Shown: positions 26,503 to 50,608 of the stretch, in pieces
Position numbering within the stretch: position 1 is the stretch's first letter
Layout: the number at the start of each line of letters is the position of its first letter
Assembly: GCA_035529595.1 (NCBI GenBank)
Contig: DATKWK010000035.1
Span: 177,067 to 241,066 of the forward strand
Source: Candidatus Bathyarchaeia archaeon
GTDB taxonomy: Bacteria; Patescibacteriota; Microgenomatia; PFEM01; JAFGMK01
Length of the DNA stretch: 64,000 nt
Reading direction: 5' to 3'
The notes under the pieces: generated by a model
What the model was told of the DNA's origin: nothing
Database searches by the model: none
The model's input: only the letters and a program-made list of their open reading frames with translations
Program-made: the position numbers and the translations under genes

Positions 26503-26508
26503 ATTTTG

Positions 26509-34238: not shown

Positions 34239-34247
34239 TTGGCCATC

Positions 34248-36284: not shown

Positions 36285-37755
36285 ATGAGTCTTTTAACAA
36301 CAAAACTCCCCTAAGTAAATTTTCCCGGGCGATCAAAAAAAGAGTCAGTGAATAAACCAAACCGCCACTGGCAATCAAGAAAAAGATAATCGGCCAACCG
36401 ATAAAACTCAGCCTATCGGTAACTACCCAAAGATAAGCACCCATCAGCAGACTTGAAAGCAGGGGTGGCCAGACAGTTTTTAAGACATTAATCTTAAAGT
36501 CTTTATAAACCAGATAAAAAACTATCAGTGAAGAAACCGGTATTAAACCTAAAGCCCAAGCAGCGCCAATAAAGCCGAATTTCACGGCCAACAGAGGAGT
36601 TAACACCCAAGTCAAAACAGTCCAGAGAATCATTAATTTAAATGTGATTTTGATCTTTCCGACCGCATTATAAACATTTGTTAAAGGAGTAGTGATCGCT
36701 CCCCAGGCAGCGTTAAAACAAAAAAGGCACAGGGGCAACAAAGCCGTTTCCCACTTCTGGTACTTGGGAATAATTCTCACCAGCGGGCCAGCCATTAAAG
36801 CCAGTCCCGTTAAAAGAGGAAAAGCCAAAACCGCAACGGAAAAAAGAGAAAACTCAAGCGCTTTTTTCAGACGGGTTTGATCTTGCTGCAGGCGGGAAAA
36901 GGCGGGAAAGGTTACTTTCATTACCGGATCCATCGCAAACCGCAGCGGCATTTGGGCCCATTTTTGCGCCCAACCTAAGATTCCCACACCGCTGACGCCG
37001 ATAATTCTCCACAAAAAAACATTCATCAAGCGATCTTTGATCACAGCCAGCAGCGTATTTGCTTGAAAAGGCAGGCCGAATTTTAGAAGCCGTTTGAGGC
37101 TTCGCAACTGGAAGGAAAAACCTATCGGCCAAGGAGAAATAAGATAAATCATCACCACGCCTGCCAAACCCCGGCATAAGACTGCCCAAGCATAACTGAT
37201 GACCCCGAATCCCCGCCAGGCTAAAAAAACAGACAGACCGTAAAAGATTAGCGTTTCTACCACTTCAATTAAAACTAAAAGATCAAAACGCAGCCTTCGC
37301 TCAAGCATTACCGAAGGAATAGTTTTCAAAGAAGCCAGAAAAAAGCCAGCCAAAAAGGCGCGCAGCAACCAGAGGCCGGCCGGACCGATTTGATAGAAAC
37401 GGGCAATCACGGGAGTCAAAATAAAAAAAGTGCCCACTGAAAGCAAGACAATTATTTCCTGGATGGTAAAAGTGCTTCTAATTTCTCTCTCGTCCGGTTT
37501 TTCTTTCTTCTGAATCAGAGCGGCTGCCAGGCCAATATCGGAAAAATATCCCAAAATTGCCACCAACTCAGAGACAGCAAAAAAAAGGCCGATTTCAGCC
37601 TGATTTAAAAAAACTGAGAGCAAAAAGAAGCCGAAGAAAGAAACGATCTGAAGTAAAAAAGTTCGGCCGGTTAAAGCCGCCATTCCCTTAACAGCCCGTT
37701 TTTTAGTCGCCTGAAAGCCGATTTCTTCTTGAATATGTTGGCGCGAATCAACCAT
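36262..37755 (-). CDS. MOP-superfamily polysaccharide flippase (Wzx-like)
   Basis: 497 aa, about 12-14 TM helices; N-terminal ...AVKGMAALTGRTFLLQIVSFFGFFLLSVFLNQAEIGLFFAVSELVAILGYFSDIGLAAALIQKKE typical of Wzx/O-antigen flippases. 23-nt convergent overlap with the plus-strand gene. Confidence 0.55.
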   Translation of the reverse strand: MVDSRQHIQEEIGFQATKKRAVKGMAALTGRTFLLQIVSFFGFFLLSVFLNQAEIGLFFAVSELVAILGYFSDIGLAAALIQKKEKPDEREIRSTFTIQEIIVLLSVGTFFILTPVIARFYQIGPAGLWLLRAFLAGFFLASLKTIPSVMLERRLRFDLLVLIEVVETLIFYGLSVFLAWRGFGVISYAWAVLCRGLAGVVMIYLISPWPIGFSFQLRSLKRLLKFGLPFQANTLLAVIKDRLMNVFLWRIIGVSGVGILGWAQKWAQMPLRFAMDPVMKVTFPAFSRLQQDQTRLKKALEFSLFSVAVLAFPLLTGLALMAGPLVRIIPKYQKWETALLPLCLFCFNAAWGAITTPLTNVYNAVGKIKITFKLMILWTVLTWVLTPLLAVKFGFIGAAWALGLIPVSSLIVFYLVYKDFKINVLKTVWPPLLSSLLMGAYLWVVTDRLSFIGWPIIFFLIASGGLVYSLTLFLIARENLLRGVLLLKDSFSSRSEK

Positions 37756-37771
37756 AAACCAATTAAAAAAA

Positions 37772-39472
37772 CTAAGGGCGCGAATTAGGTTTTTTCATGA
37801 TAATCAACAAACAAAAGATCACCCAAGAAACCAGAGACAGCCAGTTACCGAATGTTCGAATGGGCGTGTTTAAGAGCCGCGCCTCAACCGCGTAGCTACC
37901 TTTGGCAACTTCAAACGTCGGTAAACCCAAAAAGTTATTCGTATCGGTTGCCGATATCCTGCCGTCAACGTAAACGGTCCAGTTAGGAAAATAATAGACC
38001 GGTAATCTTACTTTAGCCCGATCACTGTTAATCGCAAGTTTAAATTTTAACCAGTTTGTTCCTTGCCGGTAATCATCAACCTCTCCCCCGCCTTCTGAGA
38101 ACCAAGCCATTTTCGGAGCCGGCTCACCCGGCGGATAGCTGGCTGATTTCGGTAAATAATCAAAGATCCCGGAAGTCACCTGCTCTCTCCACTCTACCGA
38201 ATCAGAAAACTTTTGTTCATCGGTCAGACGATCATACCAAACCTCCGGTTTAAAATAGCCAATGTTGAGATAAATCACGCTCGCAACCAACAAAGAGACT
38301 ATTAATAAAACCACCGGCTGCTTTTTTAACCAACGGTTAAGAATATACACCAGGCCGCCTATTAGTAAAGAGAAGGAAAAAATCGTCAGCGTCAAAAACC
38401 GCCACGGGAATTGAAGATATTCCAGGGGCTTTAATACCTTCCAAAAAAAAGTCGAGCGCGAATGAGTAAAAAATGCTGACCCTAAACCGACCACAAAAAT
38501 AAAAAAAACTTCCCAAATTTTTTTCTTACTTCTTCTTAAAAAAAAGCCAGTCAAGAGAGCCACCAGAAAGGACAGTCCCCAATGCAAAATCCCGATCTGG
38601 AAACTGATCTTTTCATCCGTTCCATAAACTGACGCCCCCCATCCCCACGAACGGTCCCAGAAAAGCTGTTTGAGCGAGACGAAATGCGCCAGATAATTAA
38701 AATAGCCCATTAGCATTGTTTCCACATGAACTAATTTTTTCTCAAAAATAACCGGCAGGGAGAAAAAAGCAGCCAAACCAAAAGCCAAAATTGAAGGCCC
38801 GATAAATTGAAAAATCTTACCGATTCGTTTATTCAAGTAAAGGCATAACAATAACCAAACGAAAGCTACCGGCGTAAAAATCATCACCATTACATTGTGG
38901 GTCAGCAACAATAAAGCATAAAAAAGAGAGAAATATAAAAGATATTTTTTCTGCCGGCTTTTCGCATACTGATAAATTGCCCAAAAAATGCCGGGGAACC
39001 AGGCCAGTGACCAAAATTCGTTCATCGCTCCCCGGGCATAAATGTCCAAAGAATGATAGGGGGCATAAGTATAAAAAAGACTTGACAAAAAACCGCCCCA
39101 AATTCCCCAAAGAACCTCGCCTAAAAGAAACATGGTAAGAGCAGCCACCAGAAAGCCCATAACGAAAGTAATTTTAACGCTATCAAGAATCGAAAAACCA
39201 AGCAAATGAATAACTTCCGCCAAATAATACGGAAACGGGGGATAATAATTAAATAAAGGGTAGCCGTAACCGTAACCGGCATCCGGCACCCAGCGGCAAG
39301 GAATCTGGCCATCGCGAAAGCATTTATCCATTTCCAGAACCCGAAAAGCCTGCATATCATCATGCATGGAGAAATAGCCGGGCTTTAAGAGCGTTTGCCA
39401 AGCAAAGAAGGTAAGTAGCAAGCTGGCAATTGGTACAAACAGCTTTATTATTTTACTTTTTCCTTGTCTCAT
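37772..39472 (-). CDS. polytopic membrane protein, YfhO-like/GT-C-like (tentative)
   Basis: 566 aa; N-terminal GYFSMHDDMQAFRVLEMDKCFRDGQIPCRWVPDAGYGYGYPLFNYYPPFPYY parallels the YfhO ..G(R/K)LPLW.P..G.P.....FYP block; more than 10 TM helices plus C-terminal soluble domain. Confidence 0.4.
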   Translation of the reverse strand: MRQGKSKIIKLFVPIASLLLTFFAWQTLLKPGYFSMHDDMQAFRVLEMDKCFRDGQIPCRWVPDAGYGYGYPLFNYYPPFPYYLAEVIHLLGFSILDSVKITFVMGFLVAALTMFLLGEVLWGIWGGFLSSLFYTYAPYHSLDIYARGAMNEFWSLAWFPGIFWAIYQYAKSRQKKYLLYFSLFYALLLLTHNVMVMIFTPVAFVWLLLCLYLNKRIGKIFQFIGPSILAFGLAAFFSLPVIFEKKLVHVETMLMGYFNYLAHFVSLKQLFWDRSWGWGASVYGTDEKISFQIGILHWGLSFLVALLTGFFLRRSKKKIWEVFFIFVVGLGSAFFTHSRSTFFWKVLKPLEYLQFPWRFLTLTIFSFSLLIGGLVYILNRWLKKQPVVLLIVSLLVASVIYLNIGYFKPEVWYDRLTDEQKFSDSVEWREQVTSGIFDYLPKSASYPPGEPAPKMAWFSEGGGEVDDYRQGTNWLKFKLAINSDRAKVRLPVYYFPNWTVYVDGRISATDTNNFLGLPTFEVAKGSYAVEARLLNTPIRTFGNWLSLVSWVIFCLLIIMKKPNSRP

Positions 39473-40596
39473 TTTTGCCTGCCTTTTAAAGACACCTGCC
39501 TGGCAACACCTGCTAAGCTAATATAGAGAGGCGGTAGAATCGGTAAAAGATATCTCGGGTAAGGCACGCCAAAATTATACATCAACAAAAACGAAAATAT
39601 CCAGGTAGTCATGAGCAGAAGCCGATAATCCTGTCTTTTTATGGCCAGAAAACCTGCCAGCAATGAGGCAAAAAAAGATAAGGGCCAAAAAATTTGCCAT
39701 TGGTTAACAAAAACGGTCTTAAAACCTTCCCACCAAGTAAGCCATCTGCCCGAGATTAGAATATTGAATATTTGTCCTTTAGGATAACCGGTTACCTGGA
39801 CGCGGGCAAAATGGCGGATCCAGAAATGCAGATATTTAAAATCGCCAAGGGTTTTACCGGTTAAGAAGTATCGGAGATAGACAGCTAAATAAGTTAAAAA
39901 GAAAAAGGGGAGGAAAAAGAAAAAAGAAAGATATTTCGGTTCTTTCTTTAAAATGGAAATCAGCAGTACCGAAACTGAAATACCGGCCAAAAGCCCGATA
40001 CCGGCCAAATAGACTTTGGTAGTGCTGGCTAAAGCCAAAAAGAACAACGCCGGCAAAAAAAATAGTGTCTTTTTTTCCGCTTGTAATAGACAATAAAAAG
40101 CCAGGCTGATAAACAGGGTAAAAGGCAAATCCAGCATCGACGTCGTTAAATTTTCCCGAAAAAGAGAATCGAAACTCAAAAGTGAAACGGCAATAGCTGA
40201 CCATAAATAATCATCAGTAATTTTTAGGGCAATCAGGAAAATAATAACCAGAATACTTAGACCCAAGATCGGCGACAGAACAAGCGGACTGTTAAAAAGC
40301 AGGGAGGAAAAACCGAGGAGATACTTTCCGGTTGGGGGTTGTTCGGCATTAATTTCGGTCGGATCCATACCCTGAATCTGCCGCCAACCGGCATAAGCAT
40401 AAAGTTCGGCATCGCCCATCTGTTCTTCCGCCGCAAAACCCTTGGCCCACTGGGACTTTTCGTAGCGCTGCTGCCAATAAAACGGGTCAAAGCGTTCGCT
40501 AAAGATTTCTCTGTCTCTTAGTACATAGGCAACAAGGCTAAAAAAACTGCCAAGCAATAAAAACCCGGTAATCAGTTTCTTTTTAGCTGGATTCAT
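39469..40596 (-). CDS. short PMT_2/GT39-like membrane glycosyltransferase (GT-C)
   Basis: 375 aa; loop motif MGDAELYAYAGWRQIQGMDPTEINAEQPPTGKYLLGFS resembles the Pmt/ArnT DE..Y...(gap)..hPPL.K.l loop. Confidence 0.45.
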   Translation of the reverse strand: MNPAKKKLITGFLLLGSFFSLVAYVLRDREIFSERFDPFYWQQRYEKSQWAKGFAAEEQMGDAELYAYAGWRQIQGMDPTEINAEQPPTGKYLLGFSSLLFNSPLVLSPILGLSILVIIFLIALKITDDYLWSAIAVSLLSFDSLFRENLTTSMLDLPFTLFISLAFYCLLQAEKKTLFFLPALFFLALASTTKVYLAGIGLLAGISVSVLLISILKKEPKYLSFFFFLPFFFLTYLAVYLRYFLTGKTLGDFKYLHFWIRHFARVQVTGYPKGQIFNILISGRWLTWWEGFKTVFVNQWQIFWPLSFFASLLAGFLAIKRQDYRLLLMTTWIFSFLLMYNFGVPYPRYLLPILPPLYISLAGVARQVSLKGRQK

Positions 40597-42184
40597 TTTT
40601 TACTTGAAACAGCAGTAAGAAATCCTGGCCGTTAGGACCGCTAGCCTTAGGATAGCGGGCAATCGGTATTAACCGTGCATCCTGTCCGACCAGAAAACGC
40701 GACTGGTTAACCAGCAAATAAACTTCGTTGTCAACCGTCGCATTAAGCAAAGAAACCGGTACTTCCCTAACCGGCTGGCCGACGCCGACGACGATTACCC
40801 GCCTGTTTTGGTCAAAATACATTTGGAAACCGTCGGGCAAGGTGCCAAAATAGCCCTCCGTGCCAACTAATATATTTCGATTCGTTTCGGCCACCCGCCG
40901 GTTTATGAAACTAACCGCCTCCTTGATTCCATAACCGGATGTCCATTCCTCAAGATAGCCGGAACGCATCTTCCGCGGTAACGGCGCTTGTGCCGGATCC
41001 ACCAGCAACCACCGGACGTAAGAAAGCGTAAAGAATAACAATAAAGTAACGATGACTCCTTGAAGCCAACCTTCTGGCAATCTCTTATTGCATCTGCCAA
41101 GATACTTTGACAAGCAGTCAATACCAACAGCTGCTAAAATAACTGCCGGCCAAACTGCAAACAGCAGATAACGCGGTGCAAATACCCGGGCAACGGCCGA
41201 CTGGGTAAAAATTGGAACGATGAAAAGACTTACCAAAAATAATATCTGGCGGCGGTCTGTTTTCATCAACCAACGCATAAAGACACCCAAAAAAATCAGT
41301 AAAATCACCGGCGGCGTGAAAAGATTCGGCAACCAGGTTATCAAATCATTTAAGTGCGGCTTTAACGGGTCCAACGGATGCCTAAACACCTCCCGGATCG
41401 GAAAAATGTAATCCTGATTACGAGTCGCAATCATGCCAAAATTCGGCCCCAAGCGCAATAGGTTATAAATTACGAAGGCAAAAAAATAAACGACCAGCCA
41501 AAAACCGCCTAGTTTAATTAATTGAAGCAAATAGGGTTTTTTTAACCTATTATTTTTGTGCAAAAATAAGGCCGATGGCAATATCAAAAAAGCGACGAAT
41601 ATCGCGGGCGATTTAGTCAGAAAGGCAGCGCCCAAAATAATACCGGTAATCATGGCTAAATCCAATCGCAAGTAATGGGCCAGGAGAACGGCTAAAAGAT
41701 AAGTCCAAACCGCCAACATACTAAGAAGGCTATCAACTAAAGCCAGCCGGTCAAAGAAAACGAAGTAAGGGATTACCGTGTATAAAAAGGCGGACAAGAA
41801 AGAAATCTTTTTGTCCCGAAAGAGAAAATAACTTAAAAGCGTAATACCGATGAAGGATCCAAAACCGGCAAGAACCGATATTAATCTGCCGACCAAAAGC
41901 GGATCCTCGGTAAGCGGCAACAGAAACATCAACAGCCACATAAAAAAAGGTTGCTTGCCATCAGAAAGAGGCAAAAAGCGCAGCGTCGGTTCCGCCCTCA
42001 TCACCTGCGCCCAGCGGACGTAGATTGCCTCATCGGCAAAAACCGGCAGCAAAGTCAAACTCATCAATCGAAGAAGAAAAAAGAGCAAAACCAAAGCTGT
42101 CCAGCCTAAGATCAATTTCCGGTCGATTTTTGAGATTTGCCTTTTAAAATTTGCCATTTCAAACGTATTTTCCGCGCCAGTCAT
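40583..42184 (-). CDS. ArnT/GT83-like undecaprenyl-phosphate-sugar:acceptor glycosyltransferase (GT-C)
   Basis: 533 aa; LPVFADEAIYVRWAQVMRAEP corresponds to the ArnT LWQPDEARYAEISREM catalytic loop; multi-TM plus C-terminal periplasmic domain. Confidence 0.6.
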   Translation of the reverse strand: MTGAENTFEMANFKRQISKIDRKLILGWTALVLLFFLLRLMSLTLLPVFADEAIYVRWAQVMRAEPTLRFLPLSDGKQPFFMWLLMFLLPLTEDPLLVGRLISVLAGFGSFIGITLLSYFLFRDKKISFLSAFLYTVIPYFVFFDRLALVDSLLSMLAVWTYLLAVLLAHYLRLDLAMITGIILGAAFLTKSPAIFVAFLILPSALFLHKNNRLKKPYLLQLIKLGGFWLVVYFFAFVIYNLLRLGPNFGMIATRNQDYIFPIREVFRHPLDPLKPHLNDLITWLPNLFTPPVILLIFLGVFMRWLMKTDRRQILFLVSLFIVPIFTQSAVARVFAPRYLLFAVWPAVILAAVGIDCLSKYLGRCNKRLPEGWLQGVIVTLLLFFTLSYVRWLLVDPAQAPLPRKMRSGYLEEWTSGYGIKEAVSFINRRVAETNRNILVGTEGYFGTLPDGFQMYFDQNRRVIVVGVGQPVREVPVSLLNATVDNEVYLLVNQSRFLVGQDARLIPIARYPKASGPNGQDFLLLFQVKNESS

Positions 42185-42914
42185 TCAACTTAACACGGAT
42201 TACCTCAAAAAACATATTCTGGGATTCTCTCAAAAAGTTATGTTGCTTGGTTTTCGATAGGTCACGGTTTTGCCACTCAACTTGAATTTCCTTGATTTTA
42301 TAGCCTTTTTTTTGTGCCAAAAACAAAAGCTCAACATCGATTGCCGAAACCCGCCAACCTTTAACTTCTTTGATGTCTTTAAAAATCTCCAGTTTGGGAA
42401 AAATTGATTTGATGACTTCAGTCCGATAGGCCTTAAAGCCGCACTGAGTGTCGTTTATTTCCCCCAAAAGAAACACCCCCCTGATCATCCTAAAGCCAAT
42501 GGTCATCAGCTTTCGGTACCAAGCCGTTCCTTTCCTGACCAAGCCACGGGAACCAATAACTATTGGAAAACCTTTTTTAAACCAGGGAAGCAGTTTTTCC
42601 AATTCCTTAATCGGGGTAGACTGATCCATATCGGCAGTTAAGATAATTTCTCCCTGCGCCTTCTCGATTCCGCTTTTAAGAGCAAAGGCTTTTCCGCCGT
42701 GTATGTTTGCCAACAGCAAAAACTGCTGACTATTGGCGATATAATTTTTAACTATTTTTTTGCTGGCATCAGTCGAACCGTCATCAGAAATAATTACCTC
42801 CCAAGAATATTTCTGTTTGGAAAGATATCCGGCCAGTTCAGCCAATACCCCTTTTTGAAGATTGGCTTCTTCATTGTAACAAGGAATGATCACAGAAAGA
42901 AAAACTTTTTTCAC
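42159..42914 (-). CDS. GT2 polyprenyl-phosphate sugar synthase (ArnC/Dpm1-like)
   Basis: 251 aa; LSVIIPCYNEEANLQKGVLAELAGYLSKQKYSWEVIISDDGSTDASKKIVKNYI...ILTADMDQSTPIKELEKLLP...IVIGSR; immediately upstream of the ArnT-like gene. Confidence 0.7.
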   Translation of the reverse strand: MKKVFLSVIIPCYNEEANLQKGVLAELAGYLSKQKYSWEVIISDDGSTDASKKIVKNYIANSQQFLLLANIHGGKAFALKSGIEKAQGEIILTADMDQSTPIKELEKLLPWFKKGFPIVIGSRGLVRKGTAWYRKLMTIGFRMIRGVFLLGEINDTQCGFKAYRTEVIKSIFPKLEIFKDIKEVKGWRVSAIDVELLFLAQKKGYKIKEIQVEWQNRDLSKTKQHNFLRESQNMFFEVIRVKLNDWRGKYV

Positions 42915-42920
42915 CGCTAT

Positions 42921-44405
42921 TCAAACTCCTTTTTTTCTCAGTTTTACAACTCTAAATCCAAAATCTTCGAAATACCACTCGGTAGCAACCTCCGATTCTC
43001 CGAAACTCGATATTTCCCAGGCAGTCATATCACCGAGGGGAATATTTTCCTGCTCGTAAATTACATATAATGTGTCGATACCGGAATAATTTTCAAAACC
43101 CTCGGGCCGGGCATCGTAAATTTCTACAAAATAACGATAGTTCATCGCCCGGAAGTCATAAGTAGGAGAAATCAGGGCCAAATTGAATCGGCTGCCTTTC
43201 GCGTCTTCGGCAATTACTTTACCGACTTCCCTGGCTCTTTTAATCTGATAATTAGGTCCCCGACCGGCTACCGGATCCAAGTTTAAAATGTTAACAACCA
43301 AAAGAAATGCGAGCAAAATAAAACCTATAAAAATTAGCCGCATTTGAAATATTTTTTTGATTACGATTGAAACCAGCAAAAAAGGCATCGGGAATAAAAA
43401 TCCCAGATAATGATCATGGATATCACCCAGATAAAAACTGACCCCGATTACCCCGATCAACAGCCAAAAAAATAAGGTTGTCAGTACCGGAGATTTTTTT
43501 TCTTTTTTTAATAGACCGAGAAAAGGAAGAAAACCAGCCACTATTAAAAAATAAGCGATAATCTTTTTCCCGCCGGCAAGGAAATAGTAAAAAAGACGCC
43601 AAGGGACAAAAGCGACTGTCTTAAGATAAGTGACTAAACTAAAACCTAATTTTTTTTCTTCCCGAAAAAAGCGCCATAAACCTTCAGTGATAATGAAATG
43701 ATGACGAACTTCAAAAAAAAGCAGGGGAAGAATTGGTATTAAAAAAGCCCCGGCTCCCAAAATGTACCACTTTCCGGAAATCCGCGGCCGAAGAAAAAGG
43801 ATTGTTACCAGGGATGAAATAACAAACAACCAGCTAATGTAATGAAGCTGGGTACAAACTCCCAGGCAAAAACCAACGACAATAATCCAAAACCCCCGAT
43901 CGCTCTTTAATAGTTTCAAAAGGGCATAAACCGCCAAAGCGGCAAAGAAGGGTGTCGGATTAGGATTCCAGGAAAAGCGAGAATGGCTAATAATCGGCCA
44001 GGATACTGAGTATAAAGAGGCAGCGATTAACCCGGTCGGCGAGCCGAAAAATTCGTTACCGAGCTTAAAAATCAGATAAACAGTGGCGACGCCAAAGACG
44101 GCTACCATTATTGCCGGACCAACCGGATCAAGACGGGCCAGCCAAAGAGGCAAAAGCATAAAATAATAGTAAACGGGTCCCAAATAAAGGTTGCCGATGC
44201 TGGTTGAAGGCCCGAGTAAAGTAAACTTGTGATCAACAATCATCCTCTTAACCACTAAAGCATCCCGGCCCTCGTCACCTAAGAAAGTAGCGTAATCAGC
44301 AATCCGGTAAAGCCGCAAAAAAGAAGCCAGTATCAATATCAGCCAAAGAAGAATTAAGGTGATTTTTTTTTGTTTTGTCCGACTGGTCATCTTAACTGCC
44401 ACCAA
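42921..44405 (-). CDS. ArnT/PMT-like GT-C membrane glycosyltransferase
   Basis: 494 aa; FLGDEGRDALVVKRMIVDHKFTLLGPSTSIGNLYLGPVYYYFMLLP matches the ArnT DE-x-R-x-A...M loop and the 11590/21548 paralogs. Confidence 0.55.
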   Translation of the reverse strand: MVAVKMTSRTKQKKITLILLWLILILASFLRLYRIADYATFLGDEGRDALVVKRMIVDHKFTLLGPSTSIGNLYLGPVYYYFMLLPLWLARLDPVGPAIMVAVFGVATVYLIFKLGNEFFGSPTGLIAASLYSVSWPIISHSRFSWNPNPTPFFAALAVYALLKLLKSDRGFWIIVVGFCLGVCTQLHYISWLFVISSLVTILFLRPRISGKWYILGAGAFLIPILPLLFFEVRHHFIITEGLWRFFREEKKLGFSLVTYLKTVAFVPWRLFYYFLAGGKKIIAYFLIVAGFLPFLGLLKKEKKSPVLTTLFFWLLIGVIGVSFYLGDIHDHYLGFLFPMPFLLVSIVIKKIFQMRLIFIGFILLAFLLVVNILNLDPVAGRGPNYQIKRAREVGKVIAEDAKGSRFNLALISPTYDFRAMNYRYFVEIYDARPEGFENYSGIDTLYVIYEQENIPLGDMTAWEISSFGESEVATEWYFEDFGFRVVKLRKKGV

Positions 44406-45094
44406 AGTCTCCCTAAATCAACGAAGGATTTGAAGATAACTTTAAAATCAGCGCCTGTCGACCTTCCCCTCTTTCGCGGATAATGATGGACACCAACCTC
44501 AGCGATCTTAAATCCGGCTTTTTTAGCTTTAGCCAGCAACTCCGGAGAGATCATACCGCCTCTGACTGAGATAAGACGGGGAATAGAATCAATTACCTTT
44601 TTGTCAACCAATTTAAAACCGCAGTCAACATCTTTTACTTTTATTCCCAGAAGAAAATTAGCCAGAAACGTCCAGCCCCGGCCAAATAACTGGCGAACAA
44701 ATGAATCTTGCCGGTTGATCCGGTAACCGATTACGATATCAGCGCCTGTTTTTTTCTTGGTCTCCAAGAACTGGCTGATTTCAGAAAAGTCAAATTGCCC
44801 ATCGGCATCGGTAAAAGCAATCAGGCCGAAACGGGAACCGTAAAAACCCTCCTTTAATCCGGAACCGTAACCCTGATTTGTTTGGTGATGGATAACCCGA
44901 ATCCGCTTATTTCGGATGGCTAACTGATCGGCAACCGCACCAGTCCGATCGGTCGAACCGTCATTAATAATCAAGATCTCCCACTCTTGGGCAATCTTGG
45001 GCAATATTTCAAGAGTTTTTGCTACTACCGATTCAATGTTTCCTTCTTCGTTATAGGCCGGAAAAAAAACGGAGATTGATTTTAGCTTTTCCAT
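44387..45094 (-). CDS. GT2 polyprenyl-phosphate sugar synthase (ArnC/Dpm1-like)
   Basis: 235 aa; ISVFFPAYNEEGNIESVVAKTLEILPKIAQEWEILIINDGSTDRTGAVADQL...IAFTDADGQFD...IVIGYR. 19-nt overlap with the downstream ArnT-like gene. Confidence 0.7.
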   Translation of the reverse strand: MEKLKSISVFFPAYNEEGNIESVVAKTLEILPKIAQEWEILIINDGSTDRTGAVADQLAIRNKRIRVIHHQTNQGYGSGLKEGFYGSRFGLIAFTDADGQFDFSEISQFLETKKKTGADIVIGYRINRQDSFVRQLFGRGWTFLANFLLGIKVKDVDCGFKLVDKKVIDSIPRLISVRGGMISPELLAKAKKAGFKIAEVGVHHYPRKRGRSTGADFKVIFKSFVDLGRLWWQLR

Positions 45095-45164
45095 TTAGCT
45101 TAAAAGTATAGCATAAACTTAATCCTCTATGCTATTATAAACAAAAAGTGAGCAATTACCCAAA

Positions 45165-46313
45165 ATGAGCCAAATGAAGAAAAAGCTGGCAATCATTGCT
45201 TTAATCACACTAACATCCACTTTCTCAATCTGGCTGCCTTTTATTTTATCCTTGAAGAGTTTTTTGGGTTTTCCTATCCCGTCCGGAGGAACGAGCAATC
45301 TCTGGGCCAATTATGACGGCCCGAATTATATTATTGTTGCTAAAACCTGGTATCAAAAGAAGCTAATTGAGCGAAATTTTTCCTTGCCTCTGCCGCTTGA
45401 ATATTATCCGGCCCACTGGCCCGGTTATCCCCTGCTTATCAGACTGGTGGGAAATCTGCTTCCCTTTACCCAGGCGATGATGGTTTCTACTTTAATAAGC
45501 TCGCTGCTGGCTGCAACGGTCTATTTCCTCTTTCTTTCGGAATTTAAACTATCGACTAATCCTCTCTGGTTAACGGTAGTTTTTCTCTTTTTACCGGCTC
45601 GCTTTTTCATCACCCGCTCGGTCGGTACCCCTGAACCGCTCTTTATCGGATTTATCTTAGCTTCATTTTATTTTTTTAAAAAGAAAAAATATTGGCGGGC
45701 CGGGATATTCGGCGCTTTAGCCCAAATAACCAAAACACCGGCAATTCTTCTTTTTTTTACCTATGGAATCTATTTACTGCAACAAGCATTCAAAAATAAA
45801 AACGTCAAGGAAGCGGTCCGGAAGACGCTTAAGGAAGCCTTGCCTTTACTAATGATACCGCTGGCTGTTTTATTGGTTTTTATCTTCTACCGGGTCCGGA
45901 CAGGCGACTTTTGGGCTTATTTTCACTCGGGCGATAATTTCCACCTAACTTTACTGCCTTTTCAAGCTTTCAATTCTTCGCGAAGCTGGCTGGGTGATAT
46001 CTGGACTGAGGATATGATTTGGCTGTACCTGCTGGCCGCCATCAGCGTTATTTTACTGCTAAAGAAAGGCTTAACTGATTTAGGAATTTTTGCCGCCTTA
46101 TTCTATACGGCGACTCTTTTTGTTGCCCATCGGGATATCTCCCGCTATAGCTTGCCCCTTTGGCCTATTGGCCTGATCGGTTTTGATGCATTCATTCAGA
46201 GGAAAGAATTCAAAATTGCCTTTTTGCTTATCCTGCCGGCGATTTATTTATACGCTTTAAATTTTATACTCGGGAACCGGGCGCCGATTGCCGATTGGGC
46301 TCCTTATCTTTGA
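45165..46313 (+). CDS. polytopic membrane protein, PIG-V/GT76-like mannosyltransferase family (GT-C)
   Basis: 382 aa; WANYDGPNYIIVAKTWYQKKLIERNFSLPLPLEYYPAHWPGYPLL parallels the 9412..10566 WANFDGIHYLQIAQRGY...AFFPFYP block; about 9 TM helices. Confidence 0.45.
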   Translation: MSQMKKKLAIIALITLTSTFSIWLPFILSLKSFLGFPIPSGGTSNLWANYDGPNYIIVAKTWYQKKLIERNFSLPLPLEYYPAHWPGYPLLIRLVGNLLPFTQAMMVSTLISSLLAATVYFLFLSEFKLSTNPLWLTVVFLFLPARFFITRSVGTPEPLFIGFILASFYFFKKKKYWRAGIFGALAQITKTPAILLFFTYGIYLLQQAFKNKNVKEAVRKTLKEALPLLMIPLAVLLVFIFYRVRTGDFWAYFHSGDNFHLTLLPFQAFNSSRSWLGDIWTEDMIWLYLLAAISVILLLKKGLTDLGIFAALFYTATLFVAHRDISRYSLPLWPIGLIGFDAFIQRKEFKIAFLLILPAIYLYALNFILGNRAPIADWAPYL

Positions 46314-47032
46314 TGAAAAAAGCTTATCAAAAACCGGATTTTTCCATTATCGTCCCGACCTACAACGAAGAAAAATATATTTTCCAGTGTCTTGAGGCGA
46401 TCAAAAATCAGAATTTTACCGGCTCTTGGGAAACTATCATCATTGACAGCTTTTCAACAGATAAAACTGTTGCCATTGCCAAACAGTTTAATACCAAACT
46501 GTTTCAGGCTAAACGAGAAGGTCCGGGATTGGCTAAAAGAACCGGTTGTCTGAAAGCACAGGCCGATCTGATTGCCCTGACCGATGCCGACATTTGCCTG
46601 CCCCGGAATTGGCTGCAAAAAGCTTATCAGAACTTACAAAATCCGCTGGTCTCGGCTACCGGCGGACCTTACCTTTACCGAGAGATGTCAAAACCGCTGG
46701 CTTTCATAAACAAAACCATTCATCTATGGCTTTTAAAGTCTTTCCAAGCGCTGCCCGGCGGCAGTATTGCCTTCCGCCGTCAGGATTATTTTAATGTCGG
46801 CGGAATTCCGACCGGGGTTACTTTTGGCGAAGACGTCTATATCTCGCGTAAGCTGTCTAAGATCGGTAAAATTCTGGTTGACCCTAAGTTGACAGTTATC
46901 GAATCGGGCAGAAGGATTGGCATCAGCGGTTTAATCAGCGGTAAGTACTCCTACCTGATCCACGCCTGGAAATTTTTGAGAACCGGAGACTTTGAAGTAC
47001 TTAAAAAAACCAGAATGAAGAAAATTGATTAG
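46313..47032 (+). CDS. glycosyltransferase family 2
   Basis: ORF 46295..47032; ATG at 46313 overlaps the upstream stop (ATGA). MKKAYQKPDFSIIVPTYNEEKYIFQCLEAIKNQNFTGSWETIIIDSFSTDKTVAIAKQ...ALTDADI. Confidence 0.65.
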   Translation: MKKAYQKPDFSIIVPTYNEEKYIFQCLEAIKNQNFTGSWETIIIDSFSTDKTVAIAKQFNTKLFQAKREGPGLAKRTGCLKAQADLIALTDADICLPRNWLQKAYQNLQNPLVSATGGPYLYREMSKPLAFINKTIHLWLLKSFQALPGGSIAFRRQDYFNVGGIPTGVTFGEDVYISRKLSKIGKILVDPKLTVIESGRRIGISGLISGKYSYLIHAWKFLRTGDFEVLKKTRMKKID

Positions 47033-48150
47033 GACACCCGCCAAATGACGCGGGTATACATCAGGTAGTTATAGGGAAGGACAAAAAAACCGATGGCGGC
47101 CACTAAGTAAAATTGTCTCCACTGCTCGCCAAAAAAATATGCCAAACCGCCGACAACCGCCCCCTGAATCAGCACTGCGCCGAGAGAAGTAAAATTGAAC
47201 TGCAGAAATTTAGCCACGAGTTTCCCCGGACCGGAAATTTTTTCTTTGGAAAACGTCCACAGATTATTAAGCGTGAAATTGGAAATGATCGCCAATTCCG
47301 CCCCGAAAGCGGCGGCGATTCCGGGACTTAATCCCAAGCGGTAAAATAATTCCAAGCCGGAAGCATTAACCAAATAGCCGATAAAACCGACGACGCCAAA
47401 CTTGACGAACCGCTGGGAACGCTCGATTCTGATTTTGGTGGCCTGCTTAATATATTCTAAGATATCTTTGATAAATTGCAGATTAAAGCCTACCTTGGCC
47501 TGACCAGCCCGCCGGTCTTTATAGATTGCCGGAATTTCACAAAATTTAGCGCCGGCCTTGCTAAGTTCATAAATCATCGTCATCTGAATCACAAAACCTT
47601 TAACATTGAGCTTTTTTAAATCAACTTGGTCAAGGATCTTTTTCACTCTGATGGCTTTCATATTGCCGTTATGATCTTTTACTTCATGGATACCGGCCCA
47701 ATAATAAGCCAACAAAGTATTGGAAACCCAGTGGGTTAGTTTTCGGAAAGGGGAAAAATTGTCGCGGCCGCCGGGGACATGGCGCGAAGGAACAGCCACA
47801 TCATAGCCTTTTTCAATTTTTGCCAGTAAATCGGGAATATAATCCGGATCCCATTGAAAATCAGCGTCATTAGGAATCACTACATCAGCTTTTAATGCCT
47901 TCATGGCGTACTGATAACCTTGAATCAGAGAGACACCCAGGCCGCGCGGCGCTTCCAGACAGAAAAGATCTTTTCTGTCTTTTGCCAGGTTTTTAACAAT
48001 CGCTGCCGTTCCGTCGGGTGAATGGCTATCAACCACCAGAGTGGAAAAATCGTACTGAGGCAGCTTTTTGGCAATTTTATCCAAAACCTCAATCATCAGT
48101 CCGACGTTATCTTTTTCGTTGTAAGTCGCCAGCAGATTAACAACTCTCAT
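47029..48150 (-). CDS. GT2 polyprenyl-phosphate mannose/glycose synthase with fused C-terminal GtrA-like membrane domain
   Basis: 373 aa; MRVVNLLATYNEKDNVGLMIEVLDKIAKKLPQYDFSTLVVDSHSPDGTAAIV...VIPNDADFQWDP...AVPSRH. C-terminal FVKFGVVGFIGYLVNASGLELFYRLGLSPGIAAAFGAELAIISNFTLNNLWTF is a GtrA-type 4-TM module. Confidence 0.7.
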   Translation of the reverse strand: MRVVNLLATYNEKDNVGLMIEVLDKIAKKLPQYDFSTLVVDSHSPDGTAAIVKNLAKDRKDLFCLEAPRGLGVSLIQGYQYAMKALKADVVIPNDADFQWDPDYIPDLLAKIEKGYDVAVPSRHVPGGRDNFSPFRKLTHWVSNTLLAYYWAGIHEVKDHNGNMKAIRVKKILDQVDLKKLNVKGFVIQMTMIYELSKAGAKFCEIPAIYKDRRAGQAKVGFNLQFIKDILEYIKQATKIRIERSQRFVKFGVVGFIGYLVNASGLELFYRLGLSPGIAAAFGAELAIISNFTLNNLWTFSKEKISGPGKLVAKFLQFNFTSLGAVLIQGAVVGGLAYFFGEQWRQFYLVAAIGFFVLPYNYLMYTRVIWRVS

Positions 48151-48586: not shown

Positions 48587-49102
48587 TTATACTAACCCTG
48601 ATAGTTTTCTTACTCGCTTAATACAAAATTTAAGCCAGTAAGTATACTGATCGGGGTTTCTTCGGATATTTTCCTCCAAGTTCTTAAGACCGACCCACTG
48701 CCAGCCTTCCGCTTCATCAGGATCAGGAAGGGGATCACCATCATAATGGCCGATAAAAACGTGATCGTACTCATGCTCTGCCAGGCCATTATCAAAATCA
48801 ACCCGATAGCAGAATTGGAATACTTCCTTCAAAGGGCAGTCAAAACCCATTTCCTCTTTTAAACGCCGATGGGCCGCTTTGGGGGTAGTTTCTCCGGGCT
48901 GCGGATGGCTGCAGCAGGTATTGCTCCAGAGACCAGCGGAATGGTACTTGCTTTTGGCTCTTTTCTGAAGCATTAATTCTCCCCGATCATTAAAAATAAA
49001 AATTGAGAAAGCCCGGTGTAGTTTCCCCTGCCGATGGGCTTGAAGTTTTTCCTGATGACCGATTTCCCGATCATCTTTATCAACCAGAATTACCTTAGCC
49101 AT
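48587..49102 (-). CDS. idi: isopentenyl-diphosphate delta-isomerase, type 1 (Nudix)
   Basis: ORF 48587..49174; probable start ATG 49102 (MAKVILVDKDDREIGHQEKLQAH...). LHRAFSIFIFNDRGELMLQKRAKSKYHSAGLWSNTCCSHPQPGE is the IDI-1 signature (C/E active site, Nudix fold). Confidence 0.8.
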   Translation of the reverse strand: MAKVILVDKDDREIGHQEKLQAHRQGKLHRAFSIFIFNDRGELMLQKRAKSKYHSAGLWSNTCCSHPQPGETTPKAAHRRLKEEMGFDCPLKEVFQFCYRVDFDNGLAEHEYDHVFIGHYDGDPLPDPDEAEGWQWVGLKNLEENIRRNPDQYTYWLKFCIKRVRKLSGLV

Positions 49103-49106
49103 AGTG

Positions 49107-49511
49107 TTACTTTTCAACAGAAACACACTTATCAGAAACACATTTCGGCTTGGGAGCAAAAAAACACATATCAATCAATCCTGTGCATTTTGAATCATAT
49201 TTTTCCATTTTATTATAAAAATATTGTTTATCAACTGTCTTGTTAATGAAATGGTAACATCCGAACTCAATATATTTTCCACCTAAGAATATTTCTTTAC
49301 AATCAGAATCGACTTGGCAGTAATTGGCCTTATTCAATTCATTCTCTATCTGATAATATTGAATCATACAGGCAGGAGACCAAAATAATAACAAAGCTAG
49401 TAAATCAATTACCACACTAATGACAATTACTCCAATCACAGTAATCAATAGGAGTCTTAATAAATATGTTATTGGTGAAATCTTAGGTGTTCTATTTATG
49501 ACTTTCACCAT
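49107..49511 (-). CDS. small membrane-anchored Cys-rich protein (hypothetical)
   Basis: 134 aa; N-terminal TM helix (LLRLLLITVIGVIVISVVIDLLALLLFW) followed by an 8-Cys extracytoplasmic domain (CQVDSDCKEIF...CYHF...CTGLIDMCFF...CVSDKCV). Confidence 0.4.
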   Translation of the reverse strand: MVKVINRTPKISPITYLLRLLLITVIGVIVISVVIDLLALLLFWSPACMIQYYQIENELNKANYCQVDSDCKEIFLGGKYIEFGCYHFINKTVDKQYFYNKMEKYDSKCTGLIDMCFFAPKPKCVSDKCVSVEK

Positions 49512-49885: not shown

Positions 49886-50608
49886 ATGAAAATCGATATT
49901 TTAACCCTATTTCCAGCCATGTTTAAGGGCCCGTTTGAAGAAAGCATTATCAAACGCGCCCAAGATAAGGGTTTTGTGGAAATTAAGATCCATGATTTGA
50001 GGCAGTGGACCAAAGACCGCTATAAAACCGTCGACGACCGTCCTTACGGCGGCGGCACCGGCATGATCATGCGTGTCGATATTATCGAACGAGCAATATT
50101 AGATATCAAAAATAAAAAAACAAAAACACGAAGTAAAAATCAAAAAATAATCTTATTAACACCTCAAGGAAAAGTATTTAATCAACAAAGAGCCCAAGAA
50201 TTGTCAAAACTAGATCGTTTAATTTTAATTTGCGGCCATTACGAAGGCGTTGATGAACGAATCAGAAAATATTTAGTTGACGAGGAAATCTCTATCGGCG
50301 ACTACATCTTAACCGGCGGCGAGCTACCGGCGATGGTGCTTACCGACAGCATCGTCAGACTTCTGCCCGGAGTTCTTCATAAACCCGAAGCGGTTGAACT
50401 GGAGTCTTTTTCACACAATAAAAACAACCACTTGTCGCTCCTGCTCGAATATCCTCAATATACCCGGCCGGCTAATTTCCGGGGTTGGAAAGTGCCTCCA
50501 GTTTTACTCTCAGGCAATCACCAGAAAATCGAAAACTGGCGCCAGGAACAAGCCCTAAAAAGAACCCGGAAGCGACGGCCGGATCTGCTAAAATCGATAG
50601 CTCGATAA
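49886..50608 (+). CDS. trmD: tRNA (guanine37-N1)-methyltransferase
   Basis: 240 aa; [62 protein letters not shown]...[10 protein letters not shown]...[26 protein letters not shown], a full TrmD signature (SPOUT knot) with a Lys-rich insertion. Confidence 0.9.

Follow-up and report, generated by a model that had tools for sequence, protein, structure and literature searches.

Two adjacent gene pairs, each a GT2 protein followed by a membrane protein of the GT-C fold, probably (at roughly 0.68) form the core of a conserved envelope glycosylation operon of the 'multi-component transmembrane glycosylation' type in CPR Microgenomates. All four open reading frames lie on the minus strand of the 64,000-nucleotide stretch of DNA analysed here (the window), where an earlier sequence-only reading had placed them: GT2a (44387..45094, 235 aa), GTCa (42921..44405, 494 aa), GT2b (42159..42914, 251 aa) and GTCb (40583..42184, 533 aa). 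Beside trmD, they are part of a conserved ~17 kb operon whose other members include a Wzx-type flippase, a DPMS-like synthase of full length and additional GT-C-like proteins.

GT2a and GT2b resemble polyprenyl-phosphate glycosyltransferases

Both GT2 proteins, predicted polyprenyl-phosphate sugar synthases, match Pfam PF00535 Glycos_transf_2 (E 2e-29 for GT2a, 2e-28 for GT2b). The best PDB sequence matches of GT2a are GtrB (5ekp), ArnC (9hwj, 9bhc and 8vxh) and PfDPMS (5mlz), with E-values of 3e-16 to 5e-13, and those of GT2b are GtrB, PfDPMS and ArnC (E 1e-16 to 9e-13). Among NCBIfam models, the top matches of both are ArnC, PgfS, Dol-P-hexose transferase, PpgS and AglJ, with the whole catalytic domain covered; GT2a matches PgfS at E 2e-19 and the 226-position PpgS model at E 1.5e-14. 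Since GT2a and GT2b score far under every curated NCBIfam cutoff, specific function is not transferable, and at 71.5 and 60.5 bits against an ArnC cutoff of 529 the two are not ArnC orthologues, if the earlier likening to ArnC is taken in that sense.

The DxD(x)Q motif and the GtrB-type phosphate-binding basic residues are present in both proteins and invariant across the GT2b family. In alignments, D96-A-D98-G-Q100 of GT2a corresponds to D94/D96/Q98 of GtrB, R125, R128 and R134 to GtrB R122, R125 and K132, and H204, R207 and G210 to ArnC H202, R205 and G208. Residues invariant in the GT2b family are D95, D97, R123 (equivalent to GtrB R122), R127 (R125), R134 (K132), D155 and G159-F-K161; the position equivalent to ArnC R205 varies. 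GtrB R122, R125 and K132 bind the phosphate of UndP (PMC12698845), and R122 has been termed 'universally conserved'. In the GT2a family the R122-equivalent is Arg in the window protein and Tyr in 33 of 54 relatives; this and the varying R205 position of the GT2b family weigh against the explanation that we prefer. Behind the RxxR motif of the GT2s, the sequence reads as hydrophobic and amphipathic, at the position of the GtrB juxtamembrane helix JM1. A search for hydrophobic TM segments in GT2a and GT2b found none, nor is there a small GacJ-like or GtrA-like partner gene within the block, which counts against the preferred explanation where membrane recruitment and flipping are concerned. Matches, motif and acceptor-phosphate Arg cluster agree with the Dpm1/ArnC-like class originally proposed and, at the sequence level, support placing GT2a and GT2b in the Dpm1/ArnC/GtrB-type polyprenyl-phosphate glycosyltransferase group, Dpm1-type signatures included. 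Polyprenyl phosphate would then be their lipid acceptor.

GTCa and GTCb are predicted to adopt the GT-C fold

The membrane partners match Pfam PMT_2 (GTCa: E 1e-9, 39 bits, cutoff 26.1; GTCb: E 5e-11, 43 bits), and many of their relatives also match PF02366 PMT. AF2 models are confident for GTCa (pLDDT 92.3, pTM 0.91) and GTCb (pLDDT 86.4, pTM 0.88). The best Foldseek match of both is ArnT (5f15), at E 7.6e-9 and TM 0.58/0.54 for GTCa, followed by STT3/AglB/PglB, ALG12/9, Pmt4 and Emb, and at E 4.7e-8 and TM 0.53/0.52 for GTCb. Pmt1/2, AftA, AftD and PimE are also among the structural matches, with ArnT and the OST catalytic subunits ranking above the PMTs. All significant matches are GT-C enzymes and none belongs to a non-glycosyltransferase family, so the models support GTCa and GTCb as predicted GT-C glycosyltransferases with ArnT as top structural match. 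The ArnT likeness noted before is thus one of structure and not of orthology: a search for a sequence-level match to ArnT, including with family profiles, found none, and structural alignments give 12-15% identity.

The LGDEGRD and FADEAIYVRW loops that had been singled out are real and prove to be signatures of their families. All 33 GTCa relatives compared keep F41-L-G-D-E-G-R-D48, with G43-D-E-G-R-D48 right behind TM1, and all 33 GTCb relatives compared keep F49, D51-E-A-I-Y55, R57 and W58, again after TM1. A K/R-rich N-terminus together with a DE motif just after TM1 suggests that the DE loop faces outward.

The two pairs are anciently diverged

GT2a and GT2b share 32% identity (E 1e-23). 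GTCa and GTCb show no similarity by BLAST and are related at the profile level only (hhalign probability 96.6%, 14% identity). These sequence comparisons support two modules that probably diverged anciently; the earlier description of a tandem duplication holds in that sense alone, and its caveat that the duplication was not recent is borne out.

Overlapping stop and start codons had been read into each pair. GT2a and GTCa do overlap, by an ATGA with the probable GTCa start at ATG 44390 (489 aa; the start in public gene calls) or by 19 nt with TTG 44405. For GT2b and GTCb the outcome depends on the start, with a 26-nt overlap from ATG 42184 or a 1-nt gap from the alternative ATG 42157 (524 aa; the start of public call P0121). 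GTCa and GT2b do not overlap but lie 6 nt apart, with GGAG as ribosome-binding site. GTCb overlaps the next gene by 14 nt and the following two genes overlap by 4 nt, so tight coupling is no speciality of the pairs.

Pairing is conserved across Microgenomates

Across 80 species-level genomes of CPR Microgenomates, GTCa immediately follows GT2a in 47 of 52 loci, and their ORFs overlap in 40/49. GTCb immediately follows GT2b in 49 of 76 loci, and GT2b is the nearest recognised upstream gene in 65/76. The orthologous neighbours compared across species share 40-60% protein identity, and the retention of the same neighbours in dozens of species-level genomes means that chance does not account for the pairing. 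The conserved order is trmD, the DPMS-like gene, M382 (a divergent membrane protein gene, described below), GT2a, GTCa, GT2b, GTCb, PTPS and MOP, with one or two extra GTCa-like genes often inserted between GTCa and GT2b.

Two synthase-like GT2s are present in 35 of 47 complete loci, and related loci typically encode two TM-less synthases and 3-9 polytopic GT-C-like proteins inside the same flanking genes. A scheme of one synthase with one dedicated transferase, as the sequence-only reading had it, is therefore too simple. A mirror-tree test did not set the GT2a/GTCa and GT2b/GTCb pairs apart (partial r 0.19 and 0.17, compared with 0.16 and -0.03 when the partners are crossed). Three loci (L006, L013 and L048) have the two GT2s side by side and the two GT-Cs side by side, and both the mirror-tree result and the broken pair order in L006 and L013 count against the explanation that we prefer. 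In L007 and L008, GTCa relatives lie directly behind the DPMS-like synthase; both loci also contain an MptA_B_family protein.

The wider operon

The interval first highlighted (40583-45094) captures the four ORFs and leaves out a better-supported third synthase, the remaining GT-C-like genes and the flippase, all of the same operon. The synthase (47029..48150, minus strand) is a fusion of a DPMS-type GT2 and a GtrA/DPMS transmembrane domain (PF00535 and PF04138), matches the P. furiosus Dol-P-Man synthase 5mlz over its full length (E 5e-34, residues 1-370 against 23-372), and in related loci keeps its place between trmD and M382. M382 (45165..46313, plus strand) is a polytopic membrane protein, transcribed divergently, that adjoins GT2a, a position kept in nearly all loci. 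It has a weak hhalign link to GTCb (probability 64%) and a below-cutoff match to NCBIfam AZOBR_p60025 (E 7e-12), a family labelled 'cell surface glycopolymer formation'. The 70 bp between GT2a and M382 (45095..45164), the sole sizeable non-coding gap in the block, are likely the promoter region for both M382 and the run from GT2a to MOP.

Downstream of GTCb on the minus strand, M375 (39469..40596) is a smaller GT-C-like membrane protein of the same operon with about nine hydrophobic segments, a weak Pfam PMT match (E 3e-4) and similarity to the GTCa family (hhalign probability 93.8%, E 1.7e-7). PTPS_related (37772..39472), a polytopic GT-C-like membrane protein also of this operon (PF10131, E 7e-11), is likewise similar to the GTCa family (hhalign probability 95%, E 3.7e-8), and one to three copies follow GTCb in most related loci. 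The co-directional run ends with a MOP/Wzx-type flippase (36262..37755; Polysacc_synt_3 E 1e-47, NCBIfam MOP flippase E 9e-42, O-glycosylation flippase E 1e-33), found downstream of GTCb in most loci. Kept next to it are two proteins with 12-14 TM segments, M653 (32190..34151, minus strand) and M691 (34209..36284, plus strand); they are paralogous (hhalign probability 100%), have no match in Pfam or NCBIfam, and M653 comes after MOP in most related loci. A third GT2/GT-C pair of the window, again with the GT2 first, occupies 28221..31279 on the minus strand, with a 4-nt overlap: the GT2 (30563..31279) has matches to AglJ at E 2e-30, to Dol-P-hexose transferase at E 2e-22 and to PpgS at E 1e-17, and the GT-C (28221..30566) matches YfhO (E 4e-13).

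Alternative explanations

With about 14 GT2 and 15 GT-C-like genes in the first 48 kb of the window, some neighbours are expected by chance in such a glycosyltransferase-rich island, but the synteny counts (47/52 and 49/76) refute chance adjacency, whose probability we regard as negligible. GT2a and GT2b might instead be cytoplasmic GT2s of the ordinary kind, elongating an Und-PP-linked oligosaccharide or other acceptor and adjoining GT-Cs only through a shared operon. Their sub-cutoff NCBIfam scores, missing TM helices and the variable R122 equivalent in the GT2a family fit this, as does the presence of at least nine other window GT2s outside the polyprenyl-phosphate type. However, polyprenyl-phosphate glycosyltransferases are the top full-domain matches, acceptor side included, only for GT2a, GT2b and the GT2s at 47029, 30563 and 5954, while the remaining window GT2s match MftF-, EpsD-, SunS- or rhamnosyltransferase-type models. 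The RxxR/K cluster and ArnC-like H..R..G motif are conserved, and TM-less polyprenyl-phosphate glycosyltransferases exist, for example GacI (PMC8035078) and the short PpgS model, making this explanation quite improbable.

The two pairs could also be insulated ArnC/ArnT-like couples, in which GT2a makes a lipid-sugar for GTCa only and GT2b one for GTCb only. Adjacency and frequent ORF overlap within each couple are kept across dozens of species, and the divergence of the GT2s and of the GT-Cs is compatible with differing sugars and specificities. Yet the surplus of GT-C-like proteins over synthases, the inserted GTCa-like genes, the regrouped genes of L006, L013 and L048, the GTCa relatives behind the DPMS-like synthase in L007 and L008 and the mirror-tree result all speak against strict couples, and among characterised systems one donor often feeds several GT-Cs, as with mycobacterial polyprenyl-P-mannose (PMC3485146); we hold this arrangement to be unlikely. 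Somewhat less doubtful, though still unlikely, is that the GT-Cs are PMT-like protein O-glycosyltransferases acting on Ser/Thr-rich surface proteins (S-layer, pili or membrane-anchored) and not on a polysaccharide. The PMT_2 and PF02366 matches, the PMTs among the structural matches and the resemblance of GT2a to PgfS, the synthase of a streptococcal protein-glycosylation system (PMC12041528), are in line with it. Against it, PMTs score below ArnT and the OST catalytic subunits, PMT_2 also spans many polysaccharide- and teichoic-acid-modifying GT-Cs (PMC8035078), and a Wzx-type flippase with many GT-C-like proteins is more typical of glycopolymer assembly; sequence cannot reveal the acceptor.

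Comparison with known systems

The layout is closest to documented precedent in Gram-positive multi-component systems, for which neighbouring GT-A and GT-C genes, GT-Cs of the PMT_2 type, flippases common to several pairs, GT-A proteins free of TM segments and Wzx-type flippases are described: CsbB/GtcA/YfhO, GtlA/GtlB, B. subtilis YkcC/YkcB and YkoT/YkoS, L. lactis CsdAB/CsdCD/CsdEF with CflA, and S. pyogenes GacI/GacJ/GacK/GacL (PMC8035078). As here, adjacent GT-A (GT2) and GT-C genes, the latter often of PMT_2 type, occur as several pairs per genome, and several pairs can share one flippase; the Gac variant, with its TM-less GT-A and Wzx-type flippase, seemingly has its counterpart in our operon. 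Unlike those systems, the pairs here come without a separate small GtrA/GtcA flippase or GacJ-like helper, GT-C-like proteins far outnumber synthases (3-9 versus 2), and a CPR lineage keeps the whole set next to trmD as a single operon. Beyond weak PgfS and PgfM matches, the likeness drawn here is one of gene layout.

ArnC/ArnT, the Und-P-L-Ara4FN synthase and lipid A L-Ara4N transferase, follows the same logic of a GT2 polyprenyl-phosphate glycosyltransferase and then a GT-C. Both GT2s have ArnC among their best sequence matches, with aligned DxDxQ, RxxR and H..R..G motifs, and ArnT matches both GT-Cs structurally with its C-terminal soluble domain included. However, ArnC has two C-terminal TM helices that GT2a and GT2b lack, and ArnA/B/D/E/F genes are absent from the block. 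CPR bacteria are monoderm and not known to have lipid A, so the ArnT acceptor would be absent. In O-antigen glucosylation by GtrA/GtrB/GtrC(V), the synthase is likewise followed by a polytopic transferase, and GtrB is the top PDB sequence match of both GT2s (E ~1e-16). GtrB, which assembles into tetramers, carries two TM helices (PMC12698845), whereas GT2a and GT2b have none. Gtr cassettes bring their own GtrA, and their transferases are serotype-specific and phage-borne, whereas the operon here is chromosomal and lineage-conserved. As for Dpm1/DPMS with PMT, the neighbouring synthase is a full-length P. furiosus DPMS homologue and the GT-Cs match PMT_2, but GT2a and GT2b match DPMS more weakly (E ~1e-13), and the GT-Cs lack a MIR domain.

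The mycobacterial and corynebacterial network comprises Ppm1, serving PimE, MptA/B/C and Pmt; decaprenyl-P-Araf, serving Emb/Aft; and PpgS, whose short model, matched by GT2a, exemplifies a TM-less synthase. As in our operon, few lipid-P-sugar synthases there feed many GT-Cs that build envelope glycan outside the membrane (PMC3485146). In contrast, synthases and GT-Cs here share one operon, and the GT-Cs are ArnT/PMT_2-like, not Emb/Mpt-like.

Proposed mechanism and implications

Around the fold and family assignments, conserved motifs, TM-less GT2a and GT2b and conserved synteny observed here, we infer a mechanism that extends to the donor choice of each GT-C, the flipping agent, the sugars and the final acceptor. 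At the cytoplasmic face, GT2a, GT2b and the DPMS-like enzyme would each load polyprenyl phosphate with a single sugar taken from a nucleotide sugar. The lipid-linked monosaccharides would then be flipped across the membrane; candidates for this step are the MOP flippase of Wzx type and the DPMS-like enzyme, through its GtrA-type domain. At the outer face, GTCa, GTCb and the GT-C-like M375 and PTPS_related may take the lipid-linked sugars as donors and use the Asp-Glu motif of the first outer loop for stepwise sugar addition to a surface glycopolymer or glycoprotein. The order of the genes points to a pair of donor blocks and away from strict one-to-one pairing, one block with GTCa-type enzymes behind GT2a and the other with GTCb and then M375/PTPS-type enzymes behind GT2b. 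The design itself is well known, and the operon would be a further case of GT-A/GT-C systems, here in tiny uncultured bacteria.

Two predicted synthase-transferase pairs in a closely packed operon

The sequence-only reading had placed two tandem modules between 40583 and 45094, each a sugar-lipid synthase followed by an ArnT-like transferase, and all four ORFs are indeed found there, closely packed on the minus strand. In both pairs, the synthase and GT-C genes are adjacent and co-directional. The first pair comprises GT2a (44387..45094, 235 aa), a small protein with a Pfam Glycos_transf_2 domain (PF00535, E 2e-29), and GTCa (42921..44405, 494 aa), a large membrane protein that matches Pfam PMT_2 at 39 bits against a gathering cutoff of 26.1. 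The second comprises GT2b (42159..42914, 251 aa; PF00535, E 2e-28) and GTCb (40583..42184, 533 aa; PMT_2, 43 bits against the same cutoff of 26.1). Public annotation names these proteins ‘glycosyltransferase family 2’ and ‘family 39 / ArnT family’. The window sequence is also present, identical, in JGI metagenome contig Ga0307378_10000010.

Overlapping stop and start codons had been proposed for each pair. This is the case for GT2a and GTCa, which share an ATGA overlap when GTCa starts at ATG 44390, the start in public gene calls, five codons after that of the 494-aa ORF. At the GT2b/GTCb junction the overlap depends on the choice of start, with the genes either overlapping by 26 nt or lying 1 nt apart. 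GTCa and GT2b are separated by a 6-nt gap carrying a GGAG ribosome-binding site. As the genes downstream of GTCb are coupled just as tightly, coupling is a property of the operon and not of the pairs. Predicted promoters and terminators between 31 and 50 kb were about as frequent as in shuffled sequence and so delimited no operon ends, and no tRNA or Rfam elements were found within the 64-kb window.

GT2a and GT2b resemble polyprenyl-phosphate glycosyltransferases

The best PDB sequence matches of GT2a and GT2b are the three structurally characterised polyprenyl-phosphate glycosyltransferases, GtrB (E ~1e-16), ArnC (1e-13 to 1e-16) and P. furiosus DPMS (~1e-13), with the ArnC alignment spanning the whole catalytic domain of the GT2s. 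The top NCBIfam matches are ArnC, PgfS, Dol-P-hexose transferase, PpgS and AglJ, all scoring so far under their curated cutoffs that no specific function can be transferred to either protein. ArnC orthology was rejected, as GT2a and GT2b score 71.5 and 60.5 bits against the ArnC equivalog NF007986, for which the cutoff is 529 bits.

In GtrB, D94 and D96 form the DxD motif, Q98 is a metal-site Gln, and R122, described as ‘universally conserved’, forms a lipid-phosphate-binding basic cluster with R125 and K132 (PMC12698845). Conservation of these positions was assessed in 54 GT2a and 83 GT2b relatives drawn from related loci. D96/D98/Q100 of GT2a correspond to D94/D96/Q98 of GtrB and are invariant in the 54 relatives; D95/D97 of GT2b are likewise invariant among the 83, with Q98 one position earlier than in the GtrB pattern. 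The GT2a basic cluster, R125/R128/R134, is equivalent to R122/R125/K132 of GtrB. R128 is invariant in the 54 relatives, while the R122 equivalent, Arg in the GT2a of the window, is Tyr in 33 of them. The corresponding R123/R127/R134 of GT2b are invariant or nearly so across all 83. GT2a also carries an ArnC-like H204..R207..G210, and the position equivalent to ArnC R205 is variable within the GT2b family. With that position and the R122 equivalent of GT2a as the two exceptions, all of these residues show little or no variation among the relatives. GT2b may further contain an ALG5-like ‘DTQCGFK’ motif, which would be a lead towards a hexose (glucose) donor.

Neither GT2a nor GT2b has a hydrophobic TM segment, and there is no small partner gene for membrane anchoring within the block. 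Their sequences do contain amphipathic hydrophobic stretches, at the position of GtrB JM1 and at the C-terminus. Homology and motif conservation support placing both proteins in the GT-A polyprenyl-phosphate GT group, with a polyprenyl phosphate as the predicted lipid acceptor.

GTCa and GTCb adopt a predicted GT-C fold

Sequence and family-profile searches with GTCa and GTCb found no match to PDB chains at E<=1, and ArnT chains in particular were matched neither by phmmer nor by profile at that threshold. Classification therefore came from AlphaFold2 models (pLDDT 92.3 and pTM 0.91 for GTCa; pLDDT 86.4 and pTM 0.88 for GTCb) searched with Foldseek. ArnT (5f15) was the first match for both proteins, at E 7.6e-9 with TM-scores of 0.58/0.54 for GTCa and at E 4.7e-8 with TM-scores of 0.53/0.52 for GTCb. 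All matches at E<=1e-3 were GT-C enzymes, with ArnT followed by STT3/AglB/PglB, ALG9/12, Pmt4, Emb and Aft. Together with PMT_2 scores above the gathering cutoff, the modeled folds support membership of both proteins in the GT-C fold class.

A conserved acidic motif, DxD, DE or a modified form, in the first extracytoplasmic loop is a feature of GT-Cs (PMC8035078). The loops highlighted in the sequence-only reading prove to be genuine family signatures of this kind: F41-L-G-D-E-G-R-D48 of GTCa, including D44-E45 and D48, is invariant in 33 relatives, as are F49, D51-E-A-I-Y55, R57 and W58 of GTCb in 33 relatives of its own. The DE motif directly follows TM1, and the N-terminus is rich in K/R, which would make the motif face outward, like that of other GT-Cs.

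Assignment to the ArnT family proper (GT83) was rejected, given the absence of a sequence-level match and an identity of 12-15% in the structural alignment with ArnT. CPR bacteria are not known to have lipid A, the acceptor of this L-Ara4N transferase. Both proteins also have weak NCBIfam matches to Agl23, an archaeal ‘flippase activity-associated protein’ (E 6e-5 for GTCa and 2e-5 for GTCb, far below cutoff), which probably reflect shared GT-C-like TM features only.

The two modules diverged anciently

GT2a and GT2b are 32% identical (E 1e-23). GTCa and GTCb show no similarity by BLAST, and hhalign recovers full-length homology (probability 96.6%, 14% identity) with the DE motifs aligned. A recent tandem duplication is rejected on these grounds, the GT2s being this divergent and the GT-Cs alike only at the profile level, which upholds the proposal that the modules are not recent duplicates. 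Both have been retained in dozens of genomes as distinct orthologous lineages, which dates any duplication to before the group radiated.

The locus is conserved across Microgenomates

Homologues of the locus are all from Patescibacteria of the Microgenomates group (Woese-, Ames-, Shapiro-, Collier-, Blackburn- and Pacebacteria), and GTCb relatives occur in at least 578 GTDB species-representative genomes. The public GenBank MAG with the identical sequence (HUW22062.1-HUW22071.1), whose proteins are named no more closely than ‘glycosyltransferase family 2/39 protein’, is labelled ‘Candidatus Bathyarchaeia archaeon’; since the window encodes a bacterial TrmD, and homologues and synteny point throughout to CPR Microgenomates, this taxonomic label is probably wrong. 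Placeholder titles, for example ‘uncultured Gammaproteobacteria bacterium’, are attached to many of the related GTDB representatives. Literature searches on the locus in CPR, Patescibacteria or Microgenomates yielded no relevant work.

For synteny, we took the best 80 loci from these genomes, called ORFs and matched each to the window protein it resembles most. The conserved order begins with trmD on the opposite strand, a DPMS-like GT2 with a GtrA domain, M382 (a 382-aa polytopic membrane protein, on the opposite strand), GT2a and GTCa. It continues with zero to two extra GTCa-like genes, GT2b, GTCb and sometimes the 375-aa polytopic protein M375, and then with one to three copies of PTPS_related, an MOP flippase, the 653-aa polytopic protein M653 and one or two GT2 genes. 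Among these best 80 loci, GTCa directly follows GT2a in 47/52, with overlapping ORFs in 40/49, and GT2b lies directly upstream of GTCb in 49/76. GT2b is the nearest recognised gene upstream of GTCb in 65/76 loci; the other loci usually have a further polytopic ORF, or one of about 230 aa, in between. Adjacency kept at this frequency (47/52 and 49/76) indicates that the pairing is real and ancient, and chance adjacency is rejected by the same conserved synteny.

How exclusive the pairing is can be judged from the same loci. Each synthase had been proposed to serve its own transferase, and the gene stoichiometry disfavours such dedicated one-to-one coupling. In the interval between M382 and the flippase, 35 of the 47 complete loci encode two TM-less synthase-like GT2s (range 0-3), and these same 47 intervals encode three to nine polytopic GT-C-like proteins, with a mode of five. 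The order of the genes also varies. In the genome of loci L006 and L048, and in L013, GT2a and GT2b come together, followed by M382 on the opposite strand and then GTCa and GTCb; in L007 and L008, two more distant relatives, a relative of GTCa comes immediately after the DPMS-like synthase. A mirror-tree analysis (distance-matrix correlation, 45 loci) showed no signal particular to the pairs: given the MOP flippase, the partial correlations were 0.19 and 0.17 within the proposed pairs, and 0.16 and -0.03 when the partners were crossed. The order of the genes points to donor blocks, one of GT2a with GTCa-type proteins and one of GT2b with GTCb and PTPS/M375-type proteins, and not insulated couples. 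The ArnC/ArnT-type logic of a synthase followed by a GT-C nevertheless holds, so that of the earlier interpretation this logic and the ancient divergence are supported and the dedicated coupling is disfavoured.

Directly before the DPMS-like synthase, L007 (4600..10506) and L008 (4560..10509) encode a UDP-glucose 6-dehydrogenase and two or three epimerase/dehydratase genes, which hints at a UDP-GlcA-derived sugar, such as a pentose, as one donor. Both loci also encode MptA_B_family proteins.

The pairs are embedded in a glycosylation island

The best-supported lipid-sugar synthase of the locus lies outside the two pairs, at 47029..48150 (minus strand). This DPMS-like GT2 with a GtrA-like 4-TM domain is a full-length homologue of the P. 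furiosus Dol-P-Man synthase (5mlz, E 5e-34), from which its activity is predicted, and it is kept beside trmD across related genomes. An isopentenyl-diphosphate delta-isomerase (48587..49174, minus strand; NCBIfam NF002995, 169 bits against a cutoff of 127) sits between it and trmD, placing a polyprenyl-precursor gene beside a polyprenyl-phosphate-dependent locus; in two related loci (L002, L004) the isomerase is absent from this position. There is no stand-alone GtrA gene at the locus, and the candidate flippases are the GtrA/DPMS TM domain fused in 47029..48150 and the MOP/Wzx-type protein at the operon end (36262..37755, minus strand).

Downstream of GTCb, M375 and PTPS_related (37772..39472, minus strand) are detectably GT-C-like, with hhalign probabilities of 94% and 95% against the GTCa family. 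M653 (32190..34151, minus strand) and the 691-aa M691 (34209..36284, plus strand) are paralogues (hhalign probability 100%) with 12-14 TM segments and a family-invariant loop, W-G-x-H-G-H-D-G-x-W-H, and most related loci keep them adjacent to the MOP flippase. They have no Pfam or NCBIfam match, and hhalign links them only marginally to their GT-C neighbours, with probabilities no higher than 48%; they could serve as a polymerase or ligase, or represent a new GT-C-like family. A further synthase-then-GT-C pair occupies 28221..31279 (minus strand), where a TM-less AglJ/Dol-P-hexose-like GT2 (30563..31279) overlaps a YfhO-type GT-C (28221..30566) by 4 nt, and a second YfhO-type gene lies at 23085..25547.

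Altogether, positions 1..48150 form a glycosylation island with about 14 GT2 genes (five polyprenyl-phosphate-GT-like and about nine ordinary), two GT4 genes, two MOP flippases and about 15 GT-C-like membrane proteins of PMT_2, YfhO, PTPS_related and unclassified types. It also encodes a nucleotidyltransferase, an epimerase, a purine/uridine phosphorylase-family protein and a phosphoribosyltransferase. Amid the glycosyltransferase genes lies an HpnJ-like B12-binding radical SAM protein (3371..4870, minus strand; E 1.5e-47, below cutoff) with a possible role in modifying sugars or lipids. Compared with the flanking housekeeping region, the island is richer in AT, with a G+C of about 0.38-0.45 against 0.47-0.53 beyond about 50 kb (50001..64000).

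Discussion

The succession of lipid-P-sugar synthase, flippase and GT-C transferase is the textbook design of Gram-positive and mycobacterial envelopes. From the observed family and fold assignments, motif conservation and synteny, we infer that a similar pathway most likely operates here. GT2a, GT2b and the DPMS-like enzyme would each load single sugars onto polyprenyl phosphate at the inner face of the membrane. The lipid-linked sugars would then be flipped, with the GtrA-type domain of the DPMS-like enzyme and the Wzx-type flippase at the operon end as candidates, and the ArnT-like GT-Cs, grouped by donor as gene order suggests, would hand them on, on the outer side, to a glycopolymer or glycoprotein of the envelope.

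With synthases and GT-Cs encoded together and two candidate flippases, the locus follows the ‘three-component’ or ‘multi-component transmembrane glycosylation’ design (reviewed in PMC8035078). Adjacent GT-A/GT-C pairs, several with PMT-2-type GT-Cs, include B. subtilis YkcC/YkcB, L. lactis CsdC/D and CsdE/F, and B. anthracis GtsA/C; several such pairs can use one flippase, CflA, and in the Gac variant a TM-less GT-A, GacI, works with a helper, GacJ, and a Wzx-type flippase, GacK (PMC8035078). ArnC/ArnT and GtrB/GtrC follow the same logic as the pairs described here. Mycobacterial polyprenyl-P-mannose and decaprenyl-P-arabinose networks also have many GT-Cs per donor (PMC3485146), a pattern that the gene counts of this locus resemble.

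A bolder reading, rather unlikely, is that the block is no accessory decoration system but core machinery, building the main Microgenomates envelope glycopolymer almost entirely outside the membrane. It invokes the conservation beside trmD in at least 578 species-level genomes. The two TM-less synthases would each be drawn to the membrane by the GT-C of the next gene downstream, and translational coupling would favour a synthase-transferase complex, by analogy with the help given to Ppm1 by Ppm2 and to GacI by GacJ. Three lipid-linked sugars would supply a relay of three to nine GT-C enzymes, with polymerase or ligase activity supplied by the unclassified M653/M691 family.

The finding, with its two ancient and probably non-exclusive pairs, extends a known principle to a new lineage and adds no new principle. 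Its interest is modest and lies in the CPR Microgenomates lineage, in how strongly the locus is conserved beside trmD and in an unusually high density of GT-Cs; the two pairs are compact units amenable to testing. CPR/Patescibacteria live attached to other cells, and to our knowledge their cell envelopes are almost uncharacterised. Given this lifestyle and how little these envelopes have been described, a lineage-wide, GT-C-rich operon is a reasonable entry point to their surface chemistry.
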